DNA of 15,650 nucleotides from Fibrobacterales bacterium (GCA_051532055.1 JAOPTX010000115.1:6064-21713); one strand, 5' to 3'; shown: positions 39 through 15,608, counted from the stretch's first letter. Made by a program: numbers and translations. Notes: generated by a model not told the origin, from the sequence alone.

Positions 39-310
39 TTGTCTCAGGTCAAAATGTCCGCCGAATCCAGGCGAATATCAGAGGGCTGGATAAACCTGAA
101 TTCTGTGTACACCTCTGGACATGTTCTTGAACTTTTTGTATGCGGGGTGGCTTTTGCCCGAGTGATCCGGTAAGGGTAGGTTAGCACTGGAGGTTGCAGT
201 GTGCTCCTAGGGAGTGGTCAATGACGTACTCAGTATCTTTGTTTTTACCAGAGAAGTATGGAATGTTGGGTACTTCTCTCGGTGGTGGACATAGGAATGG
301 GATGTGTTCG

Positions 311-661: not shown

Positions 662-1744
662 TTAAGACTTTAAAATTGCCATTAAGGAATCATTGATAAA
701 AATATTCTCTTTACCAATTTTTGTTTTTGTGAGAAGTCCTAGGTCTGTCAGTTGATCTAGATGACGAGCTGCTGCTTTTCTTTCAACACCTGTATTTCTT
801 GTTATAAATTCAATCTTACAATAAGGGTTTTCGAATAATGTTTCAACAAGTTCTTTTGAATATATTCTAGGTTTTTCGGTTCTAATTTTCTCTATCATAT
901 CATCAAGAGTAATTTTTATTTTCTGGACTTTTTTAGTTGTCTCTTCTGAAACAACTTTAATGCCTTGCAAAATATAGAGAATCCACTGCTCCCACGTCTC
1001 GTTTATATTAACGTCATTTAATAGTCGATAATATTCAGCTTTATTTCTTGTAATAAACGAACTCAAATATAATATTGGAACATCAAGAAAATCCTTAGAC
1101 ATTAAATACAGGATATTCAAAAGACGCCCAGTTCGACCATTACCATCATAGTATGGGTGAATTGACTCAAATTGAAAATGTAGGATAGCAAGATTGATCA
1201 GAGTAGAATCACAAGTATTAAAAAACTCAATGACATTACTCACCATATTGGATAAATATTGTGGCTCTGGTGGTGTGTACACGATCTTATTGGTTGTATC
1301 ATTTATCAATTGTGCACCAGGAGTTTTCCGAATCCCTGCATTGTTCCCTATTAAAATTGATTGAATTTTATCTATGTCACTAGCGCGTAGGAAGCCTTTT
1401 TCTTTAATCATTTCAGCACCTGCAAAGAGAGCTTCGCGATACAGAATCACTTCCTTAGTTTGTGAATCACTGTTTTTTGAACCTGCAGAAATTCCTTGAT
1501 ACAGCTTATCTCGAGTTGTTATGATATTCTCAATTTCGGAACTAGCTTGGGCTTCTTGCAAAACAACAGCATTGATAAGAATCGATTGATTAGGAATAAT
1601 ACGAGCCATTCCCTTCAACTCTGCAAGTGCTGAACGTGCATCAGCTTCAGCTTTCCATATTTTAAGATTGGAGTAAGAGGCCTCCCCAGGAGGGATGTGC
1701 GGAAGGTCATTAAATGGTTTTTCTGGTACACATTGTATAGTCAT
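662..1744 (-). CDS. fic: Fic-family protein adenylyltransferase, SoFic (SO4266)-like, with N-terminal inhibitory helix and probable C-terminal winged HTH
   Basis: Fic motif HPYYDGNGRTGR; inhibitory motif SSEIEN; N-terminal ARSALAELKG..IPNQSILIN..LQEAQASSEIENI typical of SoFic; C-terminal ERKAAARHLDQLTDLGLL HTH-like. Confidence 0.95.
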   Translation of the reverse strand: MTIQCVPEKPFNDLPHIPPGEASYSNLKIWKAEADARSALAELKGMARIIPNQSILINAVVLQEAQASSEIENIITTRDKLYQGISAGSKNSDSQTKEVILYREALFAGAEMIKEKGFLRASDIDKIQSILIGNNAGIRKTPGAQLINDTTNKIVYTPPEPQYLSNMVSNVIEFFNTCDSTLINLAILHFQFESIHPYYDGNGRTGRLLNILYLMSKDFLDVPILYLSSFITRNKAEYYRLLNDVNINETWEQWILYILQGIKVVSEETTKKVQKIKITLDDMIEKIRTEKPRIYSKELVETLFENPYCKIEFITRNTGVERKAAARHLDQLTDLGLLTKTKIGKENIFINDSLMAILKS

Positions 1745-1830: not shown

Positions 1831-2199
1831 CAACTCTCATTTTCTGATGGGCAAGCAGGGTTTAATACGCTCGATACAGAGTTCTACCCAATGAACAGAT
1901 ATTTGGTGGAACTCGCTGGGCATCACTACCTTAGAATGTTTAATGAAATGACGCAACTACGGTATGGGGTCTCGGCTCAGTACTTACCTTCGAATCATTC
2001 AGAGATTACACCCTACAATGTTTCACTCTTTGGGAGCTTTACCTATCCTTCGGGGCTCGGCTTGTTTGTAAAGGCAGAGAAGGGGCAAGACCTTTATAAC
2101 GTTCGGATGGTTGATGATATCTTTCGTGTGCTTAATGGGATATCCCTTACCTTTAGTGCAAGCCAACCGCCGTATCTTGAGGTTGGTTATCCTGAGTGA
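1831..2199 (+). pseudogene. Possible 3' remnant of an outer-membrane beta-barrel protein gene
   Basis: Frame is open from 1831 without a good RBS. It has alternating beta-strand-like segments and a GLFVKAEKGQDLYNVRM..RVLNGISLTF end reminiscent of OMPLA-like barrels. Weak. Confidence 0.25.
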
Positions 2200-2546: not shown

Positions 2547-2765
2547 CATATTACATTACAACCGCGGTCTTGCATAACGATACCATACAATGAAGTACAG
2601 ATTGTCCCATACACAACTGCAAGGTTAAAGCTATACCATGTGCATGATGATATTTTATGCTCAGAAAGGGAGCTACCAATTAACTCAAATTAGGTACAGA
2701 TCAGTGTAACCTGGTTCAGATGTACAAAGCATTTGTAATGAAGCTCTCAGCAGAGTGCCTTTTGT

Positions 2766-2818
2766 CCAGTCTTTTGGGCACCCAAAAGGTCTGGTCGCAT
2801 CCAGGGGCGACCCCCTGG
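2766..2818. repeat. REP/MITE-like terminal double hairpin
   Basis: CCAGTCTTTTGG-GCAC-CCAAAAGGTCTGG, then TCGCAT, then CCAGGGG-CGAC-CCCCTGG. Resembles ends of widespread intergenic palindromic elements and lies just upstream of the PLD truncation point. Confidence 0.55.
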
Positions 2819-2861
2819 GGACTAAATGAAAAGAAAAAAGAAAAAAATATTACCAGAAATT

Positions 2862-3050
2862 AAGTACACCGTGCTTGATGATGCGGTCACTATCTTTGGG
2901 TCGTTTAATTATACGGAGCCCGCTAACCGGACTAACGATGAGAATATTGTTATTGTGGGTGATGTGTTTGAGGGTAATGCGGTTGCACGGGAAAGGCAGG
3001 GGGAGGTTGCGGTTGCTTGTCGGGGGGAGATTGAGCGGTTTAATAGATAG
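2862..3050 (+). pseudogene. C-terminal fragment of a phospholipase D (HKD)-family protein
   Basis: KYTVLDDAVTIFGSFNYTEPANRTNDENIVIV matches HxKxxxxD-x6-GSxN...NDEN, but the catalytic His and everything upstream are replaced by an A-rich tract. Confidence 0.8.
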
Positions 3051-3102
3051 AGTTTTGTAAGTAGGGAGGGATTTTTTTGTCATAGTCAGCAATACCTTGC
3101 CC

Positions 3103-3172
3103 TCCCTGTCTTATCATCAAGCACTTGTCTTTCGGGATGGGTGCTTTATTATTTTGGGGTAGAATGGGGTAG
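3103..3172 (+). repeat. 70-bp direct repeat copy 1 containing an intrinsic terminator
   Basis: 63/70 identical to 4963-5032; stem AAGCACTTGTCT-TTCG-GGATGGGTGCTT followed by a T-rich tract. Confidence 0.9.
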
Positions 3173-3213
3173 GTCCTTTAGTGTCTAATTTATAAGGCAT
3201 GAGGCGAATTGTG

Positions 3214-3233
3214 AGCATTACTGACACAACTAG
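3214..3233 (+). mobile_element. attI-like site, degenerate copy
   Basis: AGCATTACTGACACAACTAG is 18/20 identical to the 5109-5167 site once the 39 bp between its two TTGCTGAC repeats are removed. Confidence 0.45.
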
Positions 3234-3437
3234 GTAAAGGGTATAATGATAGAGGTTGTCTAGAAGAATCAACTAAATAGCGTCATGAAGGATTATAAAT
3301 TACTTCCTATACTTCACCATCTTAGCGGCTTTAATTTTATTTCCGATATAGTTTTGAATAAGTTATATTACTTTGTCCTTACTTTGTAGAATATTGGTGA
3401 CAAAAATTTCATACTAATGAGTGTATCTTTTATATAT

Positions 3438-3456
3438 GCCTAATTAACAGTTGGGC
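3438..3456 (+). mobile_element. Candidate simple recombination site (7-5-7, attI-like) directly upstream of the first cargo gene
   Basis: GCCTAAT-TAACA-GTTGGGC; GTTRRRY core 19 nt before the ATG; GTTGG is complementary to CCAAC of the downstream attC-like site. Confidence 0.35.
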
Positions 3457-3468
3457 CAGGGATGTAAA

Positions 3469-4317
3469 ATGGATAAGAAAGTGTTATTTGAAATGTATAG
3501 ATATCAACTATTACCAATAGATAGATATCTACAGATGGATTTGTTAACGGATATCAAGTCAATTGAAGACCTTATAAATGAGAAAAATAACATTTTTGAT
3601 AGAGTTCTATCAGAGACGCATGAGTTTAAATATTCTAGGACGGAATTAGAGACGCAAAAAATATATGGAGAGGATGACTTTTTTCTTTTTCAAATAGCTG
3701 TCAATAAAAATGTAGTTATAGAAACCCGTGATTTTAAAGATAAAGTAGTTGATAGTTGGCCTAAGTTTTTTGTAGCTGTGTGGAATAAATCTGATAAACA
3801 GTATATAGCTGTACAAAAAAAATATACAGCATTTAAAGAAACTAAATCTGTTGTAAAACTAATATTTGAGTCATTAAAAGAATCATTGAAAAAACATCAT
3901 CTCACTACTGAAATAGAACCAATGTTTGAAAGTAAAATGTTTTGGGATATGGTTAATCGTCATGAAGGGAAAATTAAAAATGTAAAATTTGAATTTATAA
4001 CGCCTAATATGGCAAATATATCTTCTACATTAAGCGATGAATTAAAAAGTGTTGCAAAAATGACAAACTCAACACATAACAGTCTTAAACTTGAATCAAA
4101 CGATGAATCGTCGCTTAAAATTGATAAAGAAAATGAGTCTTTGAATGGCTTAATTGAATATAGTAGTGAAGGTGGTGGAGAAATATCCATTAAAGTTAAA
4201 GGAATGAGTAAGAGACTTAAAACAAGTAACACAGTTAAAGAAATATCCATAGACGAAGCAACTATTCAAGGAAACCCCGAAACAGTAGTAAACATATTGA
4301 AGGCAATAATGGAATGA
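3469..4317 (+). CDS. Uncharacterised soluble protein (282 aa), possibly DUF4747-like; first gene of a two-gene operon
   Basis: Long AT-rich ORF; AGGGA SD before ATG 3469 (preferred to TTG 3451); FW..I..VKFEFITPN and Y..EGGG motifs; ATGA overlap with the next gene. Confidence 0.85.
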   Translation: MDKKVLFEMYRYQLLPIDRYLQMDLLTDIKSIEDLINEKNNIFDRVLSETHEFKYSRTELETQKIYGEDDFFLFQIAVNKNVVIETRDFKDKVVDSWPKFFVAVWNKSDKQYIAVQKKYTAFKETKSVVKLIFESLKESLKKHHLTTEIEPMFESKMFWDMVNRHEGKIKNVKFEFITPNMANISSTLSDELKSVAKMTNSTHNSLKLESNDESSLKIDKENESLNGLIEYSSEGGGEISIKVKGMSKRLKTSNTVKEISIDEATIQGNPETVVNILKAIME

Positions 4318-4763
4318 TTAGGCAGATATTAAAAAATTCATTTTTATCACTTGGTGTGGGTTTCGTAGCGGCAATAGTCTGTTCTGCTATTGAATCAGAT
4401 TATTTACTTAAGTATTTAGAAGGTAATTTAATAACAGTTTTGGTTGCTTTATTAGCTATTAATACTACAACATTAGGTATCGTACTCGTAAAAATTAGAG
4501 ATATGGTAGATAGTAAAAATATCAATGAAGGGTCATTCGAAGAAACTAAGAAACAAATGAAATTATCTGTTACTGAACAAATAGGTTTGATTGTTTGTGC
4601 ATTAATATTTTTGGTAGCTCGAACCTCACAAGTACCATGTAGTATAACTCATATAAATCTATTGTTTGACTCAGCTATAATAGCTGTCTTTGTTTATGGT
4701 ATTACTATTCTGTATGATACAGCGAATAGTGTTTTTGTATTGTTAGAATTAGGAAAAGAATAA
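4314..4763 (+). CDS. Uncharacterised 4-TM membrane protein (149 aa), translationally coupled
   Basis: Four hydrophobic segments; 4-nt ATGA overlap with the upstream gene. Confidence 0.85.
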   Translation: MIRQILKNSFLSLGVGFVAAIVCSAIESDYLLKYLEGNLITVLVALLAINTTTLGIVLVKIRDMVDSKNINEGSFEETKKQMKLSVTEQIGLIVCALIFLVARTSQVPCSITHINLLFDSAIIAVFVYGITILYDTANSVFVLLELGKE

Positions 4764-4868
4764 CAGGGTAATACTCTGTTACTAATGTCACTCTGCCGTC
4801 CTGGGTTTCTTTCAATTTAGAAAATATTATAATGTATATCATTCCAAGGCATGATCATTGCAACGCTC

Positions 4869-4947
4869 TACCAACACCCGAAACACCCAGTATTTTTTCT
4901 ATGCGCTGAAGTGCAAAAATGCTGCGTACATTCTTCAGACGTTAGCG
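4869..4947 (+). mobile_element. attC-like site A (degenerate)
   Basis: TACCAAC...GTTAGCG. Arms match site B at 15/18 (CAACAsCCGAArCACsCA) and 18/22 (CTGCGTACrTTCnnCArACGTT). Internal stem CAGTATTTTT/AAAAATGCTG. Confidence 0.7.
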
Positions 4948-4962
4948 ACCGTCCTCCAGGCA

Positions 4963-5032
4963 TCCCTCTCTTATCATCAAGCACTCATCTTTCGGGATGA
5001 GTGCTTTTGTGTTTTGGGGTAGAATGGGGTAG
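4963..5032 (+). repeat. 70-bp direct repeat copy 2 containing an intrinsic terminator
   Basis: AAGCACTCATCT-TTCG-GGATGAGTGCTT then TTGTGTTTT. The three stem differences from copy 1 all swap Watson-Crick for G-U pairs, so pairing is preserved. Confidence 0.9.
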
Positions 5033-5106
5033 TGGTGTGGGGTATTTGTTGTGGGAGACTAGTACTTTTGGGCTATTGTGGGGGTGGGAATATATATTTA
5101 TGTTTA

Positions 5107-5173
5107 TCAGCATTGCTGACTTTCTATTGAATGGTGGATAAGGAAGCAGTTTTGCTGACACAAATAGTTGAGG
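5107..5173 (+). mobile_element. attI-like site: TCAGCA-T-TGCTGA palindrome, two TTGCTGAC direct repeats, 7-nt spacer, GTT crossover
   Basis: TTGCTGAC at 5113-5120 and 5152-5159, then ACAAATA-GTTGAGG. The GTT at 5167 is independently marked as a cassette start by a 22-bp inverted repeat with 7817-7838. Confidence 0.6.
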
Positions 5174-5257
5174 CTAATTTCAAAGGGCAGGTAAGTTTTC
5201 TAGTAATAATAATATTTATGGTTTATATATTTATAATAGGGTTTTATAGGTTTTCAT

Positions 5258-6343
5258 GTGAATAAAAGATTTATCCATAATACATTTAGTTTCATTTTTA
5301 CAATTATAATTACAGTAGCTTTAGGGGACTATTTATTTGCCCCCTTATGGGAGCTATGTAATCAATATTCAAGTCATGTGTTTATTGAACTTTTATTTGT
5401 TAATATTTCTAATCCGTTAAATTTACTAATTAGTATAGCGGTTTTAGTTTTGCTCATTTCTGCGGGATATATAAAATTCCTCGGCCTGTATAAAAAGGTG
5501 ATAATGACACCTTGGGGATTTAAAAACTGGCTACATGGTATTTTAGTTGGGTTTCCAATTATGTTGGGAATAATTGTATTCAATAATATTCATTATTTAC
5601 AGTCCGCTAAATACTTTAATGGTGACTATATAGTCTTTTCAGCTTTTGTATTTAGTATAATTTTAGCTTTACAAAAAAATTATTGCCGCATATTTAATAA
5701 AGAAGTATGCGAGAATAATGACGAGGATGAATTTATAGACTATAGCCAGATTGTTGATGAATTATATCAGAACATAAAATTGTCATTTAAAAATAATGGC
5801 GGTACAATTGGATTGTATGGAGTAAATGGAATTGGGAAAACATACACCTTAAAGCTACTAGAAGAAAAAATTCCAGAGCTTAAGGATAATATTCTTGTTT
5901 CGAAATTTGATCCATTTAATTACTCAAATGAAGTTGAAATGGTAAAAAATTTCCATCTTTCGATACTTAAAAGAATATCGGAAAATTATTTACTTCCCGG
6001 ATTTAATTCGCTAACAGATGATTTTCTGAAAATTATCTACGGTACAACAGCTAAATTTCCGAGTTTCAATTTTAATCTGAGTAGCATATTTGATAAATAT
6101 GGTTTGTCAAAAAAAGGGATTGAAAGTCATAGGCAGATTGTTGAAGATTACCTATCCAGTATGAATATAAAGATACTTGTAATAGTAGATGATATTGATC
6201 GTTGTAGTATGAAAAAGCGGTATGCACTTTTTCAGGCACTTGAAGTGCTAAGAGCAATTAAAAATGTGACTATAATTATATCTGCCTCTTCGGAAGAATT
6301 ATTTCAACAAAAAGACACAACTCCAATTTCAATAATTGAGTAA
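5258..6343 (+). CDS. KAP-family P-loop NTPase, N-terminal part with about 4 TM helices
   Basis: N-terminal hydrophobic helices; Walker A IGLYGVNGIGKT; FDPFNY (KAP FNPW-like); Walker B ILVIVDDIDRC. Confidence 0.88.
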   Translation: MNKRFIHNTFSFIFTIIITVALGDYLFAPLWELCNQYSSHVFIELLFVNISNPLNLLISIAVLVLLISAGYIKFLGLYKKVIMTPWGFKNWLHGILVGFPIMLGIIVFNNIHYLQSAKYFNGDYIVFSAFVFSIILALQKNYCRIFNKEVCENNDEDEFIDYSQIVDELYQNIKLSFKNNGGTIGLYGVNGIGKTYTLKLLEEKIPELKDNILVSKFDPFNYSNEVEMVKNFHLSILKRISENYLLPGFNSLTDDFLKIIYGTTAKFPSFNFNLSSIFDKYGLSKKGIESHRQIVEDYLSSMNIKILVIVDDIDRCSMKKRYALFQALEVLRAIKNVTIIISASSEELFQQKDTTPISIIE

Positions 6344-6346
6344 ATT

Positions 6347-7789
6347 ATGTTTACAAAAAAAGAAAGATATTTAGAGCGCTTCTTCGACTCTCAAATAACC
6401 ATACCACTATTAAGCGGTGAAAAATGGTATAACTACTTTAATAATAAGGCAGATAAGGTAATTAGAGAATACGAATTAGATTTATTGCCTTCAGATGTAA
6501 AAAATATAAGTGAAAGCCTGGAACCTTTTATTCAGTATATTTCAGAATTACTTAATACGCCTAGATTGATAAAATCTTTTATAAAACATTTTGAATATAA
6601 AATTTCTGGTATTTCTTCAGATGTAAGATTAAAAGAGCTTGTATGTTTGTCTGTAATTCATGCTTCTAATATTAAATTATTTGAATGGATACAGAATAAC
6701 CGAATTTTATTGATTGATCCCGGTTCTGCAAGTGATGAAATGTGGGCAGTACAGCAGTTGATCCACTCTTCCGAAGATTCCAATGATAAGGATACGATAA
6801 TTGAAAAAGAATTAAAAAAAATTAGGGCTAGCTCTATTGAAATTGAGTTTATCAAAAAAATATTTGGAAATGAAGTTAAGTCAATTGACGAAAACCTTGA
6901 ATATGCGAATTACGAAAAATCCATTTGTAATAGCCATATGTTTGCTTGTTATTTTTTCAGAAAATCGCTGCCTATATTATACACCAATTCTGGTCAAATA
7001 CAGTTTATTGAATTTCTAAAATCTAATAGAGGAAAAATAGACGAAATATATGAATATACAGAACAAGAGTATTTGAACTGTGAAAACCAAGCTGATAAAG
7101 ATTTAATTGCATCAAAATTACGGGAATTTATAACCACATTAGAACCAGCGAATGCAAAAGATGTTTGCATTATATTGGGCATATTAGCAAAGAAATATGT
7201 AAGTGAAAGTATTTTCCAAGCTGGGAAAAGATTTTTTGCCTATTCTACTTTTAGTTTTCTCAATAGAGAAGATGTAGATAACAATATGGCCATCAGTTTT
7301 TTAAATGAATTATTTAGAAATCCAGTATCCCATGACTTTTATGCTGTACTAGCGTTTTACTTTTTTAGAGCTGACGAAAAAAGGAAAGAAAAACAAATAA
7401 GAAAGAATTATGACCCTTCATTTACGCAAGAACTTAAAAAATTGTTTGTATATAAATGTAAGGATGTTTTTTATACTAACGAAACGCCAAATGATTTGTT
7501 TGATGAGAATGTCTCAGATTCTCCAATGCAAATGATATATAGGTGGAACGATCTTACGGATGATAATAAGCATCAAGACTATATTATATCTTTTATTGAA
7601 GTCAATAAAGACAATCTATCAAAGTTAATTGATAAAGTAAGGTCTGAAGAGCAGAGTTCACTTGAGTTATTATTGCCACTTAATGTATGGACAAAATACT
7701 TAGGGAAGTATAAACTGTATAATAATTTAACTGACCATCATGTAGATTTTCTGAGAAGGGTTTCCCAAGGTCAGTACTCTAAGTGGTAG
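6347..7789 (+). CDS. KAP-family NTPase, C-terminal part (same frame, after an in-frame TAA)
   Basis: YLERFFDSQITIP (KAP YLEK..Q...lP motif) and NTPRLIKSFI (NPR motif); junction reads GAG TAA ATT ATG. Confidence 0.82.
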   Translation: MFTKKERYLERFFDSQITIPLLSGEKWYNYFNNKADKVIREYELDLLPSDVKNISESLEPFIQYISELLNTPRLIKSFIKHFEYKISGISSDVRLKELVCLSVIHASNIKLFEWIQNNRILLIDPGSASDEMWAVQQLIHSSEDSNDKDTIIEKELKKIRASSIEIEFIKKIFGNEVKSIDENLEYANYEKSICNSHMFACYFFRKSLPILYTNSGQIQFIEFLKSNRGKIDEIYEYTEQEYLNCENQADKDLIASKLREFITTLEPANAKDVCIILGILAKKYVSESIFQAGKRFFAYSTFSFLNREDVDNNMAISFLNELFRNPVSHDFYAVLAFYFFRADEKRKEKQIRKNYDPSFTQELKKLFVYKCKDVFYTNETPNDLFDENVSDSPMQMIYRWNDLTDDNKHQDYIISFIEVNKDNLSKLIDKVRSEEQSSLELLLPLNVWTKYLGKYKLYNNLTDHHVDFLRRVSQGQYSKW

Positions 7790-7831
7790 AAATAATATTG
7801 GAAAAGTGTAGTGATAGCCCTTTGAAACTAG

Positions 7832-7903
7832 CCTCAACAGCCGAAGCACGCAAGCTTTTCTATAAAGATGAAAAAGCCTGCGTACGTTCGCCAAACGTTG
7901 CCA
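7832..7903 (+). mobile_element. attC-like site B
   Basis: CCTCAAC-AGC-CGAAGCACGCAAGCTTTT...AAAAGCCTGCGTACGTTCG-CCAAAC-GTTGCCA; imperfect hairpin with one extra base; 42 bp after the stop codon. Confidence 0.8.
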
Positions 7904-8142
7904 GAAATATTTCTAGCTTTACTTTAAGAGGGTAATGCGTTGAGCGAAGGTTGACTAGCAGTTGCTTTAGAACTCAGATGAATGTATCCTAGCAGGGAAA
8001 AGAGATAATCACCTTGACATTTAAGCTTAAAACCGCTACTTATGACTATAAATATATCTTGGCAGCCGATTTTTAAACTTTGAATTAAATCTATTAAGAA
8101 AATTATAAATCATAAAAAATATGATCGTGGTATGAGGTAAAT

Positions 8143-8850
8143 ATGAATGATATTTTAACTGTAGTAAGAGAGTTGTTTTTAGCTTGGAAAAATGGAGGAA
8201 CTAAGATACGTGTAGCTTTGATTGTTGCATTTGTTTTTTTATTCATAGCATTACTAAGTAATTTGGCTTCAGATATAGTTGTTGACTATAGATTAGCAAA
8301 TGCTGTTTCAATGATATTTCTCATCTTTGGAGGTGTTATTGGTATTCTTATTTATTTTATTCAAAAAGCCAAAGAAGAAGATAAGAATGAGGAAAGAGTT
8401 GAACAAGCTGAATTGCGTGTTCAGAATAATCCAAAAGAAACCCAAGCGGCATGGGATCTTGCTAGGATTAAATTGGAATCATATCTCAATAGAAACTTGA
8501 GTCAAGTCCGATCAATTTTTTGGTTAACATTATTGGTTATGTTGATTGGTTTTGGTTTTATTGGCGTAGGGGTTACTAAGGCTTTTGAAAATTCTGAAAA
8601 CTTCCAACCTGCACTTTTGTCAGCTGTCACAGGTGTGTTAATTAATTTTATAGGTGCAACATTTCTTGTTTTATATAAATCTACAATGAGTCAAGCAAAA
8701 GACTATGTTGCAATTTTGGAACGTATAAATGCAGTTGGTATGTCTGTACAAATTTTAGACAAACTAGAAGATGCAGATAGCGATTTAATACATTCGACTA
8801 CTGCAGACATTGCTAAGTCGTTGCTCGATTTATACAAGACAACAAAATAA
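8143..8850 (+). CDS. Membrane protein with a TRADD-N-associated 2TM-type domain (4 TM in total)
   Basis: GAGG SD. YLNRNLSQVRSIFW...G.LINFIGATFLVLY..T..QA..Y...LER matches the family pattern as I recall it. Confidence 0.75.
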   Translation: MNDILTVVRELFLAWKNGGTKIRVALIVAFVFLFIALLSNLASDIVVDYRLANAVSMIFLIFGGVIGILIYFIQKAKEEDKNEERVEQAELRVQNNPKETQAAWDLARIKLESYLNRNLSQVRSIFWLTLLVMLIGFGFIGVGVTKAFENSENFQPALLSAVTGVLINFIGATFLVLYKSTMSQAKDYVAILERINAVGMSVQILDKLEDADSDLIHSTTADIAKSLLDLYKTTK

Positions 8851-9397: not shown

Positions 9398-11566
9398 CTA
9401 TTTATTAATATTCAGCAGAGCACTTCTTTTTTCAACGGGTGAATGCATGGTGACAACATATAAACCAGGCGTTACAGTACCAGGAATTTGTATAGTCTGA
9501 TGGCTTTTTTGAGCCTTAAGTTGATGATGATAGAGTAATTGTCCGTCGAGTGTAAAGAGTTGAATCTTGTATGGAATCGTTATGTTAGAAATGCGTATTG
9601 TGCGATTTATAGCTGTAAAGGTTAAAGAACTTTCGGATTCCATTACTCTCAGTGGAGTTGGGTGTTTGTTGACTGAATCAGTTGGGGAACTCTCAGGAGG
9701 TTCTTCATAAGGTCCCCAATAATGTTCTACTCGAGCAATATCAGTGCTTCCTTCAAATGTATACCACACAGCACTATCATCGAGTTGAAATGTTCTACTT
9801 ATTGTTTTTCCTTCGAAGGGTATTGTTTTATCGATTGTAGTAAAACCCCAAGGGGCGCCGGCTCCGGGATTAATATGCGCAGTTCTGTATGTTGAGTCAG
9901 AAAATATTCTTAGCATACCGTTGGTGTACTCAACTATTTCTCTAGGATTAAATGTAAAGTTCATTGTCTCCCTATCCTTATTAAATGAAGTTCCTTCAAA
10001 TGCTTTGATAAAATACTTGCCGCGTTTCCCGTGCCTACAAGTAAACCATAACGTTTGATCGCTCGTTTGTGTAATGGCCAACACTTCTTTGGTTTCTAGA
10101 TGGTGCGTCCATGTGCTGCCGTTGAACATCGATACTCCACTTTCATAGTCTGTATTGGCAAATTTCAGTTGACCAGTGTAGTCGATCCAAATATTTCCAT
10201 CATCAAAATCATAGAGCCAATTGATTGTACCTACCATTTCTTCAATGGTCTCAGTATGGGTACTCCAGAATTGCCCATCAAATCGTTTTAATATTCGTTG
10301 ACCTCTATTAAATACCCAATATTCACCAGACTGTGTTCTGTGTACCATTAATGTGCCATCGGGCATGGTCGGAATTTGAGTAATAAACTGTAGATCTGTT
10401 CCGGTGTATAAAAAGATTGAATCTTTTGCTCGAAAATAGTTCCCATCATTGTTAGTCATTAATACTTCATTGATAGATCTATTGTAAATAGTATCCCACG
10501 TTATTCCGTTAAACTTTAATATGCCATAGTCTCCAGTTTTTATTGTATTCTTTGAATAAAGGGCCGAAAGTCTATTTTCATGAGCAACCTTTTCAAATAT
10601 GGTGCCGTTAAACTTGTATACAGTGCCGTTTAGTAGTGCAGTTAATTCACCAGCATTATTTTTATTAAGAGTCACTTCTGACGCAGAAATACCACTTTTG
10701 TGTAGGTTAAAAGAGGACCATGTGACCCCATCAAATAGAGATATAGCTGCGCAAGTATCAGTGGTATTATAATAACTATACCAAAGGCTATCACCACCAC
10801 CATCAACCAGCATTGAGAGTTTAAGGTTTGTAGGGATTACCAACTCGGGATGTGATTCAGACGAAAACACCTGATAATCATTTTCACTCTTCTCAGGGGC
10901 AAATCGAATTAAGCTGTTATGATCATATGGATCTTTAAACCAGAGTGAACCATTTTTCTGCTCAAAGGGACATTTATAATCTGAAAAGGGCAAATAATAT
11001 TTATACCAAGTACTCCCATCAAAACGTGAATACCCATTTGCCGTAGAGTCACTGTTATTTTTAAAATGAAACCAGATGTCCTGAGTGGGTGGTTGATGAC
11101 TATTTGTCTGGCAATGAGTATTCCTCAAAAAACCGGGATTAATCATGGCATCACTATACATGGTGATGGTAGCTCTGTCAGCATAGAATAGTGACCGATT
11201 TATTTGTAAATACAACTGAACTTGAGCGAGTACAATGTCATTGTTGGTCGCAGTTATCGTAATGGTATCTACTCTTGAATTCGGGTACTCGATAATATCT
11301 GCAGTTACCGACAATCTTACGGTATCGGAGCTGTTCGGTGTTATATACTTCTGGGTCAGGCTTCCGCGATTAGTCGCTAAAGTAACATCACTTGAAAACT
11401 GTTTCCAGTCTATTGTAAATCCAAATTCAGCAGGGTCAGGTTTTTCTGTATCCAAATTAAAAATTATTGTATCAACAGCATTAATAGGTATTAAAGAAAT
11501 GAATTCTTGTGCTGTCACCCCAATAGATAATAGCATTAATAGAAGTAATAAATTGACGTTCTGCAT
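9398..11566 (-). CDS. Secreted beta-propeller (two-component-regulator-propeller-like) protein with T9SS-like C-terminal domain, 722 aa
   Basis: Signal peptide MQNVNLLLLLMLLSIGVTA-Q; repeated FDGSTW/FDGVTW/FNGITW/FDGQFW/FNGSTW; Pro/Ser linker; IQLFTLDGQLL...PGLYVV end; AAGGA upstream of ATG 11566. Confidence 0.85.
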   Translation of the reverse strand: MQNVNLLLLLMLLSIGVTAQEFISLIPINAVDTIIFNLDTEKPDPAEFGFTIDWKQFSSDVTLATNRGSLTQKYITPNSSDTVRLSVTADIIEYPNSRVDTITITATNNDIVLAQVQLYLQINRSLFYADRATITMYSDAMINPGFLRNTHCQTNSHQPPTQDIWFHFKNNSDSTANGYSRFDGSTWYKYYLPFSDYKCPFEQKNGSLWFKDPYDHNSLIRFAPEKSENDYQVFSSESHPELVIPTNLKLSMLVDGGGDSLWYSYYNTTDTCAAISLFDGVTWSSFNLHKSGISASEVTLNKNNAGELTALLNGTVYKFNGTIFEKVAHENRLSALYSKNTIKTGDYGILKFNGITWDTIYNRSINEVLMTNNDGNYFRAKDSIFLYTGTDLQFITQIPTMPDGTLMVHRTQSGEYWVFNRGQRILKRFDGQFWSTHTETIEEMVGTINWLYDFDDGNIWIDYTGQLKFANTDYESGVSMFNGSTWTHHLETKEVLAITQTSDQTLWFTCRHGKRGKYFIKAFEGTSFNKDRETMNFTFNPREIVEYTNGMLRIFSDSTYRTAHINPGAGAPWGFTTIDKTIPFEGKTISRTFQLDDSAVWYTFEGSTDIARVEHYWGPYEEPPESSPTDSVNKHPTPLRVMESESSLTFTAINRTIRISNITIPYKIQLFTLDGQLLYHHQLKAQKSHQTIQIPGTVTPGLYVVTMHSPVEKRSALLNINK

Positions 11567-11718
11567 GGTAGTGATTGTCCTTTTAAATGCTCTATCCAAA
11601 AGTAGGCAATAAAAATATGTTTACAGATATATTTTGAAATATAGGTGTTGTGGTGTTCACTAGTTGTGAACGCGGTGCTTTGGGCGGCCCCTTGTCCCAT
11701 GCCAAAACGCCCCCTTGA

Positions 11719-11776
11719 TCATCTAAAAGTATATATCAGCGCCTCAGAGCGTACCATCGGCTACTAAAATGTAACC
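11719..11776 (+). repeat. 58-bp direct repeat copy 1
   Basis: 51/58 identical to 13363-13420. Confidence 0.9.
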
Positions 11777-11894
11777 GTAAGACCAACCGCTGCTTCTCCC
11801 GTTAACGATCGTGGGCAATTACAGGTGATTGATGGATATCTCCATGATGAGCACGGTAATTCGGTACAGCTCCAAGGGGCGAGTCTTTTTTGGA
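11775..11894 (+). pseudogene. GH5 gene fragment (N-terminal part of the mature catalytic domain)
   Basis: 108/120 identical to 13770-13889; encodes VRPTAASPVNDRGQLQVIDGYLHDEHGNSVQLQGASLFW. Confidence 0.92.
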
Positions 11895-12116: not shown

Positions 12117-13289
12117 ATGAAACTATTTAAAATTGAAATAATATGTATGGCAATGGGTCTTGCATTTATAGGATGCGACCAAGTGGAGAATCCAGCTATT
12201 ACCGAAGAAGCATCTTCTATTAATGGCTCTATTTTACATTGTGAACCAATTAAGTATGAAGTGGCTGGCAAAGAAATTATACGGCCAATTAAACATGATC
12301 TATCTAAGATAAATAATAAACTTAATAAAATGCCTAAGCTACAGTCAGCACTAGGATTGGATCGTATAACAACGTGCAAAGAGGTATCTACGTATCGTGA
12401 ATTATACCCAATGTATTTAGAAGATGATGGTGTTAAAAAAGTAAGACCTGAAGGGGTACTAACTTTGGAACCTGAACCCCAAAATATTCCAATTGCTGCA
12501 AAGCAATCGAGTGATATATCCCTAAGAGGGGGGCATTCAAACTATTATAATCCAGGTACTGTACTTATTGAAATGGATTATGGAGGTGGTATGATAAATG
12601 CTTGTACGGGTAGTATGATAAACTCATATTCTATAATGACAGCAGCCCATTGTCTTGAGGACGAAGAAGGAACTCCATTCAAAGTATCTTATTTTGATCC
12701 TGATACAGATACAAAAAGGGTGGTTAAAAATTATACTACAATGGATCTCTTCATACCCGCTGCATATGACGGGGACGGTGATTGGGAGAACGATATTGGC
12801 ATTATGACCCTTAAAAACCGTAATGACAAATGGGACAACACTAGTTCTGGTGATTACGTGAGATTTTATAATGATAACCTCTCTGAATTGAATGGGATGA
12901 CTGCTCTTAACTTTGGGGCTGGTTATTATGATAGAAGTGTAGGTGATTTAGATGGTGAATTACGATATATGTACGTTACATTAAAAAATTATTCTGAACA
13001 CTATTTGTATTTTTATGCTCCTACAGGTGAATATAATTCCGGGCAAAACTGTATGAGGGACTCAGGTGGCCCTATTATACCAAGTGAAAGAGATTTGGGA
13101 CGGTGGAATGTTGTAGCGGGCGTACTTGCAGGAGCTGATGCATATGCGGATGGTAAATGCCTCCTGGTAGGGCAAAATACAAAGGTAACTTCACCTGCTT
13201 CACATGTAGGATTTATTGAGGAATCAATTGGTAAAACGTGTCGGGAGTGGCCGACTTCTAAGGGCCTTTGGTATAAGCGCTGCTGGTAA
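12117..13289 (+). CDS. Trypsin-like (S1) serine protease lipoprotein with pro-region
   Basis: AAGGA SD; lipobox FIG-C20; triad motifs TAAHC, DIGIM, RDSGGP. Confidence 0.92.
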   Translation: MKLFKIEIICMAMGLAFIGCDQVENPAITEEASSINGSILHCEPIKYEVAGKEIIRPIKHDLSKINNKLNKMPKLQSALGLDRITTCKEVSTYRELYPMYLEDDGVKKVRPEGVLTLEPEPQNIPIAAKQSSDISLRGGHSNYYNPGTVLIEMDYGGGMINACTGSMINSYSIMTAAHCLEDEEGTPFKVSYFDPDTDTKRVVKNYTTMDLFIPAAYDGDGDWENDIGIMTLKNRNDKWDNTSSGDYVRFYNDNLSELNGMTALNFGAGYYDRSVGDLDGELRYMYVTLKNYSEHYLYFYAPTGEYNSGQNCMRDSGGPIIPSERDLGRWNVVAGVLAGADAYADGKCLLVGQNTKVTSPASHVGFIEESIGKTCREWPTSKGLWYKRCW

Positions 13290-13353: not shown

Positions 13354-13362
13354 AATACTTAC

Positions 13363-13420
13363 TCATCCAAAAGTATAGGTCAGCGCCATAGAGCCTACCA
13401 TCGGCTACTGAAATGTAACC
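13363..13420 (+). repeat. 58-bp direct repeat copy 2
   Basis: 51/58 identical to 11719-11776. Confidence 0.9.
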
Positions 13421-13714
13421 CCCATAACCCCAAACTCTTCTGAAAAATCTATAACGATTGGTTGTTGATCAGGCTGCATAATGACTCCCAATAAACTCAA
13501 ACGAGTTACCCTATACCCTTATAGTATCATGAGAAAAAGCTACCACCAAACAAATAACAAACACCACAAAACCATCGATTACAGCCTAAAACAGCTGATT
13601 CCACCACCATATGTCACCACAGGTCAACATTTGATCCCCTAAAGCCCATTGATTGTAATCTCCCTGCCACAATATAACATAGTTTATATAAGGGGAAATA
13701 ATGGGGGATCACAC

Positions 13715-15250
13715 ATGCATCGTATTCACACCGGTATACTTTTATTCGCTGTAATAGTACTTATACTATCCGTAAGACCGACTGCTGCTACTCCGGTTAA
13801 CGATCATGGGCAATTGCAGGTGATTGATGGATATCTCCATGATGAGCACGGTAATTCGGTACAGCTTAAAGGAGTAAGCCTTTTTTGGAATCAATGGTCG
13901 GGGAAGTACTGGAATGCTGAGCTCGTAGATTGGCTCGCTACAGAATGGCGTATTGATGTACTACGGGTACCTGTTGGCGCAGGGGATGGTGACGGAACCT
14001 ATTATTTTGATTTTGAAGAAGATGTTCCTCAGGCAGAGTTGGTTATTCAAGCCGCAATTAATGCAGGGATCTATGTGATGATTGATTGGCATGGACATCA
14101 CGCAACCGATCATGGTGATGATGCGTGGGCATTTTTCAGTTACTTTTCAGAAAAGTATGGAGACTACCCCAATATTATCTATGAAGTCTTTAATGAGCCT
14201 CTTGATCATTCATGGGGAGAGATAAAAAATTATACTGAAGGGCAGCTGGTTGCTATTCGTGCAAATGATCCCAATAATGTGGTTATTGCAGGGACTGGGT
14301 TTTATGATACCGAGCCTCATGAAGTGGTCGATCAAGATGCATGGGTGACCTATGATTATAAGGTAGACCCTAATGTAATGTATTCAATACACGTGTATGC
14401 CGGTAACAATATGCCTGATGATTCTGACCCTGCTTTTAGAAATTTTAATCATGCTATAAGTAATGGGCTCCCGGTTTTTATGACTGAATTTGGGGTGGAT
14501 AATCCTATTGTCTATCCTAATACTCCCGATTTACATCATGCAAATATGTGGGTCGATTGGATGAACCATCATCGAATCAGTTATGCGAGTTGGAGTATCA
14601 AAGATATTGATGATGCCAATAGAACGTCCAATTTCGTAATGCCCCATGCCTCTGAATTTGGTGGGTGGACAGATGATGACCTTTCGGTATCGGGAAAATG
14701 GGTCCGTGATCTAATGCTCAGCTCTCATCCTGACCCCTATGACCCTACAGGGAGACCAAATATCGATTGGGATGGTGATGGCGTTGGTGATGGTATTGGT
14801 GACGGCATTGGTGATGAGATTGTTGATACTCCTGCCCAATCAAGTGGAGCAGTGGTTGAACTCTCGTCTATGGAGGTGGATGAATCCTCTTCTGAAAAGG
14901 ATGGTAGTGAGAGCTCTTCTTCGAGTGATGCTATAGAACTGCCTGAATCTTCTTCGAGTGAGAGTGTAGTAATGCCGCCAACTTCTTCGGAGAGTATGAG
15001 TTCAGAAGAGAGCATTGCCCCATTAAACGAGGGATTGCAGGTGAGACCTACTCTTCACTCAGTGCCTTTTATTTATAGAGAGGGTACGGCGAATGTCGTT
15101 ACGCTTAATCCAGAGACACTGAAGTATAGCATTGTTTCTCCCGATGGTACCGTCTGGCAGTCTGGAGTGAATGCAGGGTCTGAAGCTGAGGGGGGAGTGG
15201 TACCGGTGCAGTCACTTCCTACTGGGTTGTATCTACTGATTCAAGAGTAA
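13715..15250 (+). CDS. Glycoside hydrolase family 5 (GH5_2-like endoglucanase) with Ser/Glu-rich linker and T9SS-like C-terminal domain, 511 aa
   Basis: GGGGGA SD before ATG 13715; signal peptide; GVSLFW, MIDWH, YEVFNEP (acid/base), FMTEFG (nucleophile), SYASWS; SSSE linker; LPTGLYLL end. Confidence 0.95.
   Translation: MHRIHTGILLFAVIVLILSVRPTAATPVNDHGQLQVIDGYLHDEHGNSVQLKGVSLFWNQWSGKYWNAELVDWLATEWRIDVLRVPVGAGDGDGTYYFDFEEDVPQAELVIQAAINAGIYVMIDWHGHHATDHGDDAWAFFSYFSEKYGDYPNIIYEVFNEPLDHSWGEIKNYTEGQLVAIRANDPNNVVIAGTGFYDTEPHEVVDQDAWVTYDYKVDPNVMYSIHVYAGNNMPDDSDPAFRNFNHAISNGLPVFMTEFGVDNPIVYPNTPDLHHANMWVDWMNHHRISYASWSIKDIDDANRTSNFVMPHASEFGGWTDDDLSVSGKWVRDLMLSSHPDPYDPTGRPNIDWDGDGVGDGIGDGIGDEIVDTPAQSSGAVVELSSMEVDESSSEKDGSESSSSSDAIELPESSSSESVVMPPTSSESMSSEESIAPLNEGLQVRPTLHSVPFIYREGTANVVTLNPETLKYSIVSPDGTVWQSGVNAGSEAEGGVVPVQSLPTGLYLLIQE
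14774..14821 (+). repeat. 4 x 12-bp coding tandem repeat (GDGV/GDGI/GDGI/GDEI)
   Basis: GGTGATGGCGTT GGTGATGGTATT GGTGACGGCATT GGTGATGAGATT. Confidence 0.85.
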
Positions 15251-15608
15251 GTGGGGAGCTGAACAGAGGAAATAATCCTTTTTTTAATACAAGCCTTGAC
15301 CTTAGTTTTGCCGTCCAGGGCTATACTCTCCAGAAGTGGTAATTATTATTGCAGCGAGTAGTAAACGTACTGTAAGTATAGTTAATGTAATTATGACAAA
15401 TAGATGCAATCTATTATGCTTTTACTGAATCTGAACATATATTAAAACTACAGACTCATGAAGGGCACAAGTGAGAAAGGCACACATTCTCAATTCTGTC
15501 TTTAGTATTTTATAACATAATAATTTAAAATGGCAGTCTACTGCGTATGAGTTTTCAGTCAGTGACAGATATACGGATTGAAAGGTACTCTTTGCATTAA
15601 GGAAAATT

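Follow-up and report, generated by a model that had tools for sequence, protein, structure and literature searches.

The window analysed in the present study, a stretch of 15,650 nt from a Fibrobacterales bacterium (GCA_051532055.1, JAOPTX010000115.1:6064-21713; here contig C115:6064-21713 of genome G000), is in our judgement probably part of a hypervariable chromosomal island that was built, in a marine Fibrobacterales genus, by an integron-like cassette system whose landing site for cassettes is present in multiple copies. Within the array a non-coding module, made up of a terminator and an attI-like site, is reiterated, and each copy heads a cassette, just as a first-pass annotation of this DNA had proposed; the repeat, the junctions and the attC-like sites on which that proposal was built are all found where it had placed them. 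G000 is a metagenome-derived draft genome of 5.17 Mb in 181 contigs. It was set beside a congeneric, independently assembled draft genome (G001, hereafter the sister genome), and beside the source DNA run and a small metatranscriptome of one sample, which were compared as contigs or unitigs. Positions given without a contig name refer to the window, and an arrow in a sequence marks the crossover point.

Module 2 (4942-5167, + strand) looks intact: a terminator (4979-5006) is followed by the motif GGGGTAGAATGGGGTAG, a conserved middle stretch, a pair of TTGCTGAC boxes in direct orientation (5113-5120 and 5152-5159, at a distance of 39 nt) and the junction TTGCTGAC-ACAAATA-G↓TT, with the crossover at 5167/5168. 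Module 1 (3051-3233, + strand) carries an inverted box, GTCAGCAA, at 3085-3092, then a terminator (3119-3146), GGGGTAGAATGGGGTAG and a beta-type core ending in TAG at 3233; its junction reads TTACTGAC-ACAACTA-G, of which 3233 is the last base. Compared with module c of the sister genome, about 40 nt appear from the alignment to be missing between the boxes, one box is left where module 2 has two, and no TTG follows the G; module 1 is probably decayed. The first-pass annotation had listed these two modules, both of which are present, and had missed a third, diverged one at 79-283 (+ strand), which was recognised from BLAST blocks and from a sequence alignment with four copies on contig C24 of the sister genome. 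This alpha-type module also looks decayed: its junction at 281/282 is mutated, reading TCG↓GTGG instead of TAG↓TTGG, and a cassette-type start of the GGTGGACATAGGAATGGG family follows; two of its four relatives end in ...TAG↓TTG and continue into different cassette starts. Together with C115:2741, the attI-like sites on this contig number four, those of the window lying at 79-283, 3222-3233 and 5152-5167. A homopolymer run of about 17 C (23-40) stands just upstream of module 79-283.

Modules 1 and 2 share a direct repeat of 70 nt (3103-3172 and 4963-5032, 90% identity), which is among the two longest repeat families of the window and which, in a search of the whole G000 genome, recurred only as a 50-nt partial copy on C42. 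Each copy contains, on the + strand, a 12-pair stem-loop with a T-rich tail (3119-3146 and 4979-5006), a predicted intrinsic terminator, and terminator-like sites in 2700-8300 number 7 as against 1.9 +/- 1.9 in shuffled sequences. Read from the repeat alignment, three T-G/G-T positions of the module 1 stem pair in the + transcript only and become A-C mismatches on the other strand. In integrons a Pc promoter lying upstream of attI drives the cassettes. Here, a scan for sigma-70-type promoters, the consensus of which may not suit the host phylum, listed no site between terminator and crossover in module 2, and in module 1 a single 9/12 site (3221-3250) that spans the crossover at 3233. In four modules the terminator is directly followed by GGGGTAGAATGGGGTAG (two GGGGTAG units; 3155-3172 and 5015-5032 in the window), which could be a promoter or a binding site, and a variant of it lies upstream of the attI-like site on C72 of G000, at about 19640.

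The cassettes end in attC-like hairpins. On the + strand, attC-A runs from CAAC at 4872 to G at 4941 and attC-B from 7835 to 7897, both with the boundary G↓TT; scoring 72.9 and 78.5 bits, respectively, against a covariance model, they are homologous members of a family of 29 sites that iterated nhmmer searches found on 13 contigs of G000, many of them at contig ends. The covariance model likewise gave 29 sites in G000, and 9 in the sister genome. The family alignment conserves CAAC at the 5' end and ...CGTTG at the 3' end, and the inner arms of the subtypes change together; attC-A is the most diverged member and ends in GTTA, not GTTG. When 22 aligned sites and 18 named pairs were tested for covariation against 500 shuffles, 92.7% of the cells were paired as against 78.9% in the shuffles, and compensatory changes on both sides occurred in 52 cells as against 17.1, with 0 of the 500 shuffles reaching that number; in controls whose partners had been slid by 1-3 columns, 35-44% of the cells were paired. 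The central stem was also predicted by RNAalifold alone, and 7 of its 11 pairs show compensatory change. No Rfam family matches the attC-like sites, and a scan of the window with Rfam at E up to 1 returned a chance microRNA match only. Like the attC sites of integrons, then, these sites possess imperfect inverted repeats, R''...AAC and GTT...R' ends, and structure conserved over sequence. With two attC matches in the window and three on C115, and with no match to the integron-integrase model TIGR02249 on that contig, C115 falls under the definition of an attC-site cluster without an integron integrase (CALIN; at least two attC sites and no integrase nearby), a label that describes the contig, not the system.

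This anatomy differs at several points from the one first drawn. The right half-site had been read as GTYAGC, with GTCAGCA at 3085 and GTTAGCG at 4941 taken as equivalents; the right half is GTTG plus cassette-specific sequence, and of the two motifs the former is an inverted TTGCTGAC box, which has a counterpart in the attI region beside the recombinase gene of the sister genome, and the latter the R' end of attC-A. The palindromic empty target that had been envisaged, TTGCTGAC-N7-GTCAGCAA, has 0 matches in the 5.17-Mb genome at up to 2 substitutions. An empty module 2 would be predicted to read ...ACAAATAG↓TTGCC....

In a metagenome contig, tandem modules may of course come from a wrong join at a repeat, and the unitigs of the source DNA run do break inside the terminator repeat, where a several-fold higher depth points to other copies in the sample. 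We nevertheless hold an assembly artefact to be extremely improbable. Unitig record 2 (4455-4999) spans the join 4941/4942 and record 4 (5059-6757) the join 5167/5168, each with 0 differences, and a 119-nt unitig of matching depth connects the two; therefore the joins of attC-A with module 2 and of module 2 with cassette B are present in the reads and were not made by the assembler. Moreover, the independently assembled sister genome has the same tandem module architecture.

The same anatomy adjoins a recombinase gene elsewhere in the genome. Contig C46 encodes a tyrosine recombinase of 364 aa (14354-15448, minus strand), after which about 190 nt end in ...TTGCGTAC-TCTTTTA-G↓TTG, an attI; the first cassette behind it has the same start/end repeat as cassette B with other genes inside, and the second closes, where the contig stops, with a family attC. 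Both cassettes have hairpin ends of the family type, of which the nhmmer search matched only the second. In NCBIfam the protein reaches 230 bits against XerA (cut-off 220) and stays below the cut-off of the integron-integrase model TIGR02249 (184 bits, cut-off 265); in the alignment it keeps the catalytic columns R, K, H, R, H and Y and is without the insertion of about 36 residues found in the proteins of C108 and C44, to which we return below. Its ortholog on C3 of the sister genome (56% identity) has the same gene neighbourhood in a syntenic chromosomal context. There, the attI region has one inverted GTCAGCAA box and, spaced by 40 nt, two GCTGAC boxes in direct orientation, and ends in ...GCTGACACAACTAG↓TTGG (second box ...GCTGAC-ACAACTA-G↓TTGG), with a cassette bearing a family attC behind it; the core is of the beta type, as in the modules of the window. 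On both contigs, as in an integron, attI adjoins the recombinase gene and the first cassette is joined to it at G↓TT. The description of the array as integrase-less, given in the first-pass annotation, holds for this contig and not for the genome, as a recombinase is encoded on C46, together with a related attI and sites of this attC class.

The orphan sites can be compared directly with these recombinase-adjacent ones. Alignments were anchored at the crossover G and extended over the last 20 or 60 nt, with 100,000 random genomic windows as background. Modules 1 and 2 each agree with the recombinase-adjacent attI of the sister genome at 15 of 20 positions, a value that at most 1 of the 100,000 random windows equals, and three beta modules of the sister genome agree with it at 13-15 of 20. 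Among the orphan sites of the alpha type, those on C3, C72 and C115:2741 match the C46 attI at 14-15 of 20 positions, and one PLD-adjacent site of the sister genome matches it at 51 of 60. Box spacing is conserved at 39-40 nt. The compilation from both genomes comprises 13 attI-like junctions, of which 2 are recombinase-adjacent, and between the genomes the alpha and beta core types are swapped between the recombinase-adjacent and the PLD-adjacent positions.

These values bear on the idea that the cassettes arrived by off-target insertion, the work of the true integron integrase (IntI) at attG-type secondary sites of a consensus of about GWT, with the resemblance to attI being incidental. A true IntI is indeed encoded in both genomes; that of G000, a protein of 454 aa with a long N-terminal extension that belongs to a canonical integron on C108 (7906-10767), scores 372 bits against TIGR02249 (cut-off 265). 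Passages of 10.1101/2022.09.11.507474 describe cassettes inserted at a GWT consensus away from att sites, as well as isolated cassettes (SALINs), and the left edge of module 2, which is the G↓TT of attC-A and where its homologs have GTT, looks like one secondary-site event. On the other side, the junctions share 13-17 of 20 and up to 51 of 60 positions with recombinase-adjacent attI, far beyond GWT, and a second box stands at a fixed distance. The canonical IntI, besides, has its own array and its own attC class of 121 nt (R'' ...CATAAC, R' GTTATG...), of which at least 13 copies are spread over seven contigs (C32, C30, C157, C31, C74 and C130 besides C108), and 0 of the 29 window-class sites lie on C108 or on C44. 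We therefore regard off-target insertion as improbable. Contig C44 encodes an IntI-like protein (9986-11191, 401 aa) with an IntI-type insertion and a score of 194 bits, below the cut-off, which is conserved in both genomes (C36:137226-138104 in the sister genome). With the canonical integron of C108, two cassette systems coexist in the G000 genome.

The cargo behind homologous sites differs between the two genomes. C115 and contig C24 of the sister genome share both ends of the island (272 nt at 96%, and 2.2 kb including a GH5 cellulase gene at 94%), and the interiors, 19 kb in G000 as against 31 kb in the sister genome, have in common only modules, attC sites, PLD fragments and one other repeat. 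On C24, three beta modules in one orientation end in ...TTTTGCTG(A/G)CACA(A/T)ATAG↓TTG and each runs into a different cassette start, three in all, a fourth standing behind module 2; across the four beta modules the cut is always ...TAG↓TTG. This recurrence of the module before different cassettes in an orthologous island speaks against a simple local duplication with identical cargo, which the first-pass annotation had named as the finding that would undo it. The suggestion that every cassette has a module of its own did not hold up: no module follows attC-B, the flanks of the five family sites on each of C100 and C89 show cassettes starting directly after attC, and in the sister genome module a is followed by two attC matches with no module match between them.

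What is repeated together with the module is an operon. In its full form this consists of a small gene, a gene of 381 aa and a gene for a PLD protein of 346 aa with two HKD motifs (NucT/DrmC-like, with PADLOC and NCBIfam matches); for the 381-aa protein, the ESM Atlas returned hypothetical proteins only, with recognition below a useful level. Full operons stand directly before attI-like sites on C3 of G000 and on C24, C13 and C23 of the sister genome, and fragments precede other modules. The homology of the copies begins at the start codon of the small gene. The module is the 3' flank of a repeated operon ending in a PLD-nuclease gene, not the free-standing landing pad first imagined. In the window, a remnant of the 381-aa gene lies at 1855-2187 (+ strand; residues 268-378, 94% by tblastn over 111 aa, 92% DNA identity to C24 of the sister genome), and a PLD-nuclease (NucT/DrmC-like) remnant open reading frame (ORF) at 2826-3050 (+ strand), in which the C-terminal 61 residues (2862-3044) match Pfam PLDc_2 and, at 92% by tblastn, residues 285-345. 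Module 2 has no PLD remnant; its homology with the other copies starts within a few bases of the attC-A G↓TT, and two homologs in the sister genome have GTT at the position matching its left edge. We infer that a recombinase-mediated join at a secondary GTT may have removed the PLD operon that once stood before it.

Could the sites be fossils, that is, PLD operons duplicated by ordinary recombination together with attI and the first cassettes, later trimmed by deletions, so that the sites are inert and the array is frozen? Every module or homolog follows a PLD operon or a fragment of one, and since the operon paralogs are only 82-86% identical, the duplications are old; the cores of module 1 and of module 79-283 are damaged, attC-A is the most diverged of its family with its GTTA end, and no excision joint has been seen. 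Yet the four beta modules keep the box-spacer-G core nearly intact as their flanks diverge, each being joined at G↓TTG to a different cassette. Orthologous islands that share almost no cargo require turnover after the duplications, and the swapping of alpha and beta cores between recombinase-adjacent and PLD-adjacent positions likewise speaks against a frozen array. We consider this explanation unlikely, though it deserves the most serious hearing of the alternatives treated here.

Module 2 by itself might also be taken for a small ORF-less cassette (4942-5167), holding a terminator or a regulatory RNA and inserted between cassettes A and B. ORF-less cassettes are known in integrons, and module 2 is flanked on both sides by G↓TT crossovers. 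However, no attC stands at its 3' end, the covariance model finding only attC-A and attC-B in the window; that end is instead the box-spacer core of the recombinase-adjacent attI, and the homologs of module 2 extend leftward into the PLD gene and not into an attC. This makes an ORF-less cassette very improbable.

A further feature ties the landing sites to the cassettes behind them. Cassette B (5168-7897, + strand) contains a PifA-like KAP P-loop NTPase in two ORFs and attC-B, and is bounded by a terminal inverted repeat of 22 nt (5167-5188 and 7817-7838, 95%), the right copy of which ends in the CAAC of attC-B and so extends the R'/R'' pairing. In cassette A (3234-4941, + strand), which consists of two overlapping ORFs (3451-4317 and 4314-4763) of unrecognised function and attC-A, start and end show weak inverted complementarity only. 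In the two genomes, the first 26 nt of the cassette recur inverted, 1.2-6.5 kb downstream and directly before CAAC and the attC core, at 10 of 12 attI-like junctions, which bears out the tie between module copies and cassette boundaries that had been proposed. Among consecutive attC pairs, 6 of 14 have at least 18 of 26 complementary bases when the stretch following one site is set against that preceding the next CAAC, as against 3 of 182 non-cognate pairs, and the widely spaced attC pairs probably hide undetected sites.

The folding of these ends hints at strandedness. Circularised cassette B folds as one long hairpin of -36.2 kcal/mol on the bottom strand and -32.8 kcal/mol on the top (the junction of the modelled circle is one base off), a difference of 3.4 kcal/mol in favour of the bottom strand; within the array, attC-B gives -19.5 and -14.3 kcal/mol, respectively. 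By eye, position 11 of the extended repeat is A at the start and C at the end in 8 of 8 recognisable cassettes (e.g., window 5177 versus 7828), so that the bottom strand can form T-G where the top strand has an A-C mismatch, and this imperfection may be a strand-marking feature. Position 11 and the fold energies together are an indirect hint that the folded bottom strand of attC could be the substrate. One cassette family has a one-base bulge at positions 10-11 of the extended repeat.

How such a system would operate can be sketched as follows. A cassette ends in a 70-nt hairpin site (CAAC...GTTG) and would be cut and joined at G↓TT, and in its circular form the first 22-26 nt would pair with the 22-26 nt before CAAC to give a longer hairpin. 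In the landing site a TTGCTGAC or TTGCGTAC box stands twice in direct orientation, at a distance of about 39 nt, before 7 nt and G↓TTG; the site exists in many paralogous copies, one adjoining the XerA-like recombinase gene, most following the terminator of a PLD operon and several standing in tandem in one island; each copy could head a short array of its own, the recombinase acting in trans from its own locus. The XerA-like enzyme, as the candidate catalyst, would bind the boxes and an L-type arm (TGCGTAC or TGCTGAC, also present in the attC 3' arm), and strand exchange would take place at G↓TT, at any copy, between the double-stranded landing site and the folded cassette site. The terminator would end the PLD-operon transcript or, at module 2, transcripts running on out of cassette A, which would leave each short array transcriptionally separate. 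What the sequences show is the anatomy and homology of the sites, the differing cargo at homologous sites and the covariation of the hairpins; the acting enzyme, the single-stranded folded substrate and the continued activity of the extra landing sites are proposed on that basis.

Several observations weigh against this interpretation. No recombination event has been seen directly, and the service in trans by a tyrosine recombinase that had been suggested at the outset is, on the resemblance of the sites to recombinase-adjacent attI, plausible to that extent. No credible excision or empty-site joint appeared among the contigs of the single DNA run. The tight link to the PLD operon could mean that the sites were merely copied along with it, and the cores of module 1 and module 79-283 are damaged. 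A hidden Markov model (HMM) of four beta modules, searched against the genome and the sister-genome loci, found, at E < 0.01, module 2 only, and missed the recombinase-adjacent attI of the sister genome at E up to 10, so that what the sites have in common lies in the boxes and the core alone. At 2 of the 12 junctions no inverted partner of the cassette start was found at up to 6 errors. The recombinase adjoining the window-class sites is without the insertion (I2 helix region) that defines integron integrases, and the true IntI or the IntI-like protein, both of which are encoded in both genomes, might act on these sites. According to passages of PMC4792948, integron integrases carry a specific domain that serves the single-stranded attC pathway, and this is the main argument against an enzyme without the IntI domain. 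Finally, the evidence comes from two draft genomes of one genus, and the co-occurrence of the elements is that of a single lineage. Three unitig joints in the DNA run (3147 to 5057 with 11 foreign letters, 5088 to 5149, and 5191 to 7813) were set aside as not being excision, their shorter side having only 22-27 letters and lying at repeats.

The lineage is indeed a narrow one. Among the genomes of the class, the attC model matches 2 of 151 (29 sites in G000, 9 in the sister genome) and the module is matched in 2 of 208. The C46 recombinase has a close ortholog in the same genus only, the next best relative being 38% identical. Its relatives were collected at 36 genome-contig and 52 metagenome-contig loci, where, beyond the sister genome, full-length proteins reach at most 42% identity and short partial ones at most 56%. 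In these 88 loci no window-class attC was found at E up to 0.1, save one weak match (E 0.064, L157). Screened for self-repeats, the 36 genome loci gave scattered ones, some of them downstream of the gene in Flavobacterium and other Bacteroidota. At L084, L086, L089, L095 and L100 (Chitinophagales, Flavobacterium, Spirosoma), homologs of 36-37% identity have direct repeats of 55-140 nt downstream of the gene, which may be either gene duplicates or another kind of site array.

Going beyond the reading favoured above, and only tentatively, we raise the possibility of a second kind of integron, in which a Xer-type recombinase that never had the IntI domain would act on folded hairpins, and in which the landing site would have been multiplied and dispersed behind a defence operon as a distributed platform, so that one enzyme would serve many short, terminator-insulated arrays. 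Segments between two landing sites might then move as super-cassettes. Exchange between attI and attI does occur, as passages of PMC4792948 report, and this suggests that a segment lying between two landing sites could be excised. Should the existence of such a Xer-type system be borne out, it would provide a living example of the chicken-and-egg stage considered in the same passages of PMC4792948, namely hairpins without the specialised domain. If the neighbouring Xer-type enzyme is the catalyst, the system would bear on the evolution of integron integrases from Xer-like ancestors, and it would constitute a new and compact recombination system, in which one partner has a 20-nt core with boxes and the other a hairpin of 70 nt.

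As for the remaining contents of the window, a SoFic-like Fic-domain defence gene (662-1744, minus strand; Pfam Fic_N, Fic and SoFic-like_C, PADLOC SoFic 350 bits) belongs to the island cargo. The two proteins of cassette A have no match in Pfam, NCBIfam or PADLOC. In cassette B, the KAP NTPase is divided into ORFs of 361 and 480 aa (5258-6343 and 6347-7789) by a stop at 6341-6343 with a new ATG at 6347, PADLOC PifA positions 11-102 matching the first ORF and positions 240-678 the second; judged from these reading frames, it would be either a broken gene or a natural two-part form. RNA contigs lie over cassettes A and B at a depth of 2-7, as against about 470 for DNA, which does not in itself demonstrate transcription. 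The segment after attC-B (7898-8850, + strand), ahead of which there is no module, contains the gene of a TRADD-N-associated protein with two transmembrane (2-TM) segments (8143-8850), and a search for a closing attC after this gene found none. Further along, repeats of 63 and 123 nt (86-89%; 11714-11894 versus 13358-13420 and 13767-13889), which also occur on C24 of the sister genome, sit upstream of a trypsin-like gene (12117-13289) and where the GH5 cellulase gene (13649-15250) begins, and appear to be unrelated to the cassette sites. Outside the window, a chromosomal array behind the full PLD operon of G000 (C3:131679-138243) encodes, in the interval between two attC sites that were detected, a Phd/ParE toxin-antitoxin pair, an RDD protein and a DUF4145 protein, and this interval probably holds further undetected sites.

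The known systems offer a measure of how far this one departs from the ordinary. By definition an integron has one integrase, one attI and attC-joined cassettes, and, to our knowledge, attI sites outside the clinical classes are hardly known. In the full texts searched, we found no account of attI sites reiterated in nature, nor of a recombinase and an array paired in this way. Integrase-less arrays are usually read as debris or as off-target insertions; the present arrays each start at a conserved copy of the landing site, which gives some CALINs a concrete origin, and by this means a single genome could possess many capture points that are transcribed independently. CALINs are defined by attC sites alone, and attG sites share GWT only, according to passages of 10.1101/2022.09.11.507474. 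The contig of the window resembles CALINs and SALINs in having attC-bounded cassettes and no integrase, and differs from them and from attG insertions in that each of its short arrays begins at a conserved site of several boxes, a homolog of the recombinase-adjacent attI.

Two further systems share parts of the design. The attI1 site of class 1 integrons combines a core site with the direct-repeat accessory binding sites DR1 and DR2, and the two direct boxes upstream of the crossover, joined in some versions by an inverted one, seem analogous to it; unlike attI1, to which they have no sequence similarity, the present landing sites occur in multiple genomic copies. The pdif modules of Acinetobacter plasmids are discrete gene modules between palindromic 11-6-11 sites used by a Xer recombinase. 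A Xer-type candidate enzyme and short sites bounding gene modules are found here as well, in common with Xer/dif and pdif, but there is no 11-6-11 palindrome, as the absence of any match to the predicted palindrome, which would have had the two inverted arms and the 6-8-bp spacer of a Xer/dif-type core, illustrates, the sites are all in one orientation, and one partner is a covarying hairpin of 70 nt.

The closest likeness is to the sedentary chromosomal integrons, including those that act as stores of anti-phage defence. As in these, the recombinase gene is divergent from attI and the cassettes are co-oriented; a cassette ends in an imperfect hairpin with ...AAC and GTT... ends and a G↓TT crossover, and its first bases complement its own R''; the content turns over rapidly between close relatives; and the cargo is of a defence type (SoFic, the PifA-like KAP NTPase, ParE/Phd). 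Unlike in chromosomal integrons, the R'/R'' pairing extends over 22-26 bp instead of 7, the adjacent recombinase is XerA-like (230 bits, cut-off 220; for IntI 184 against 265) and without the IntI insertion, and attI is present in many copies instead of one, with four sites on C115 and at least five intact ones in the orthologous island of the sister genome. As far as its sequences tell, the system would work like a sedentary chromosomal integron while departing from it in two defining features, the IntI domain of the adjacent enzyme and the single attI.

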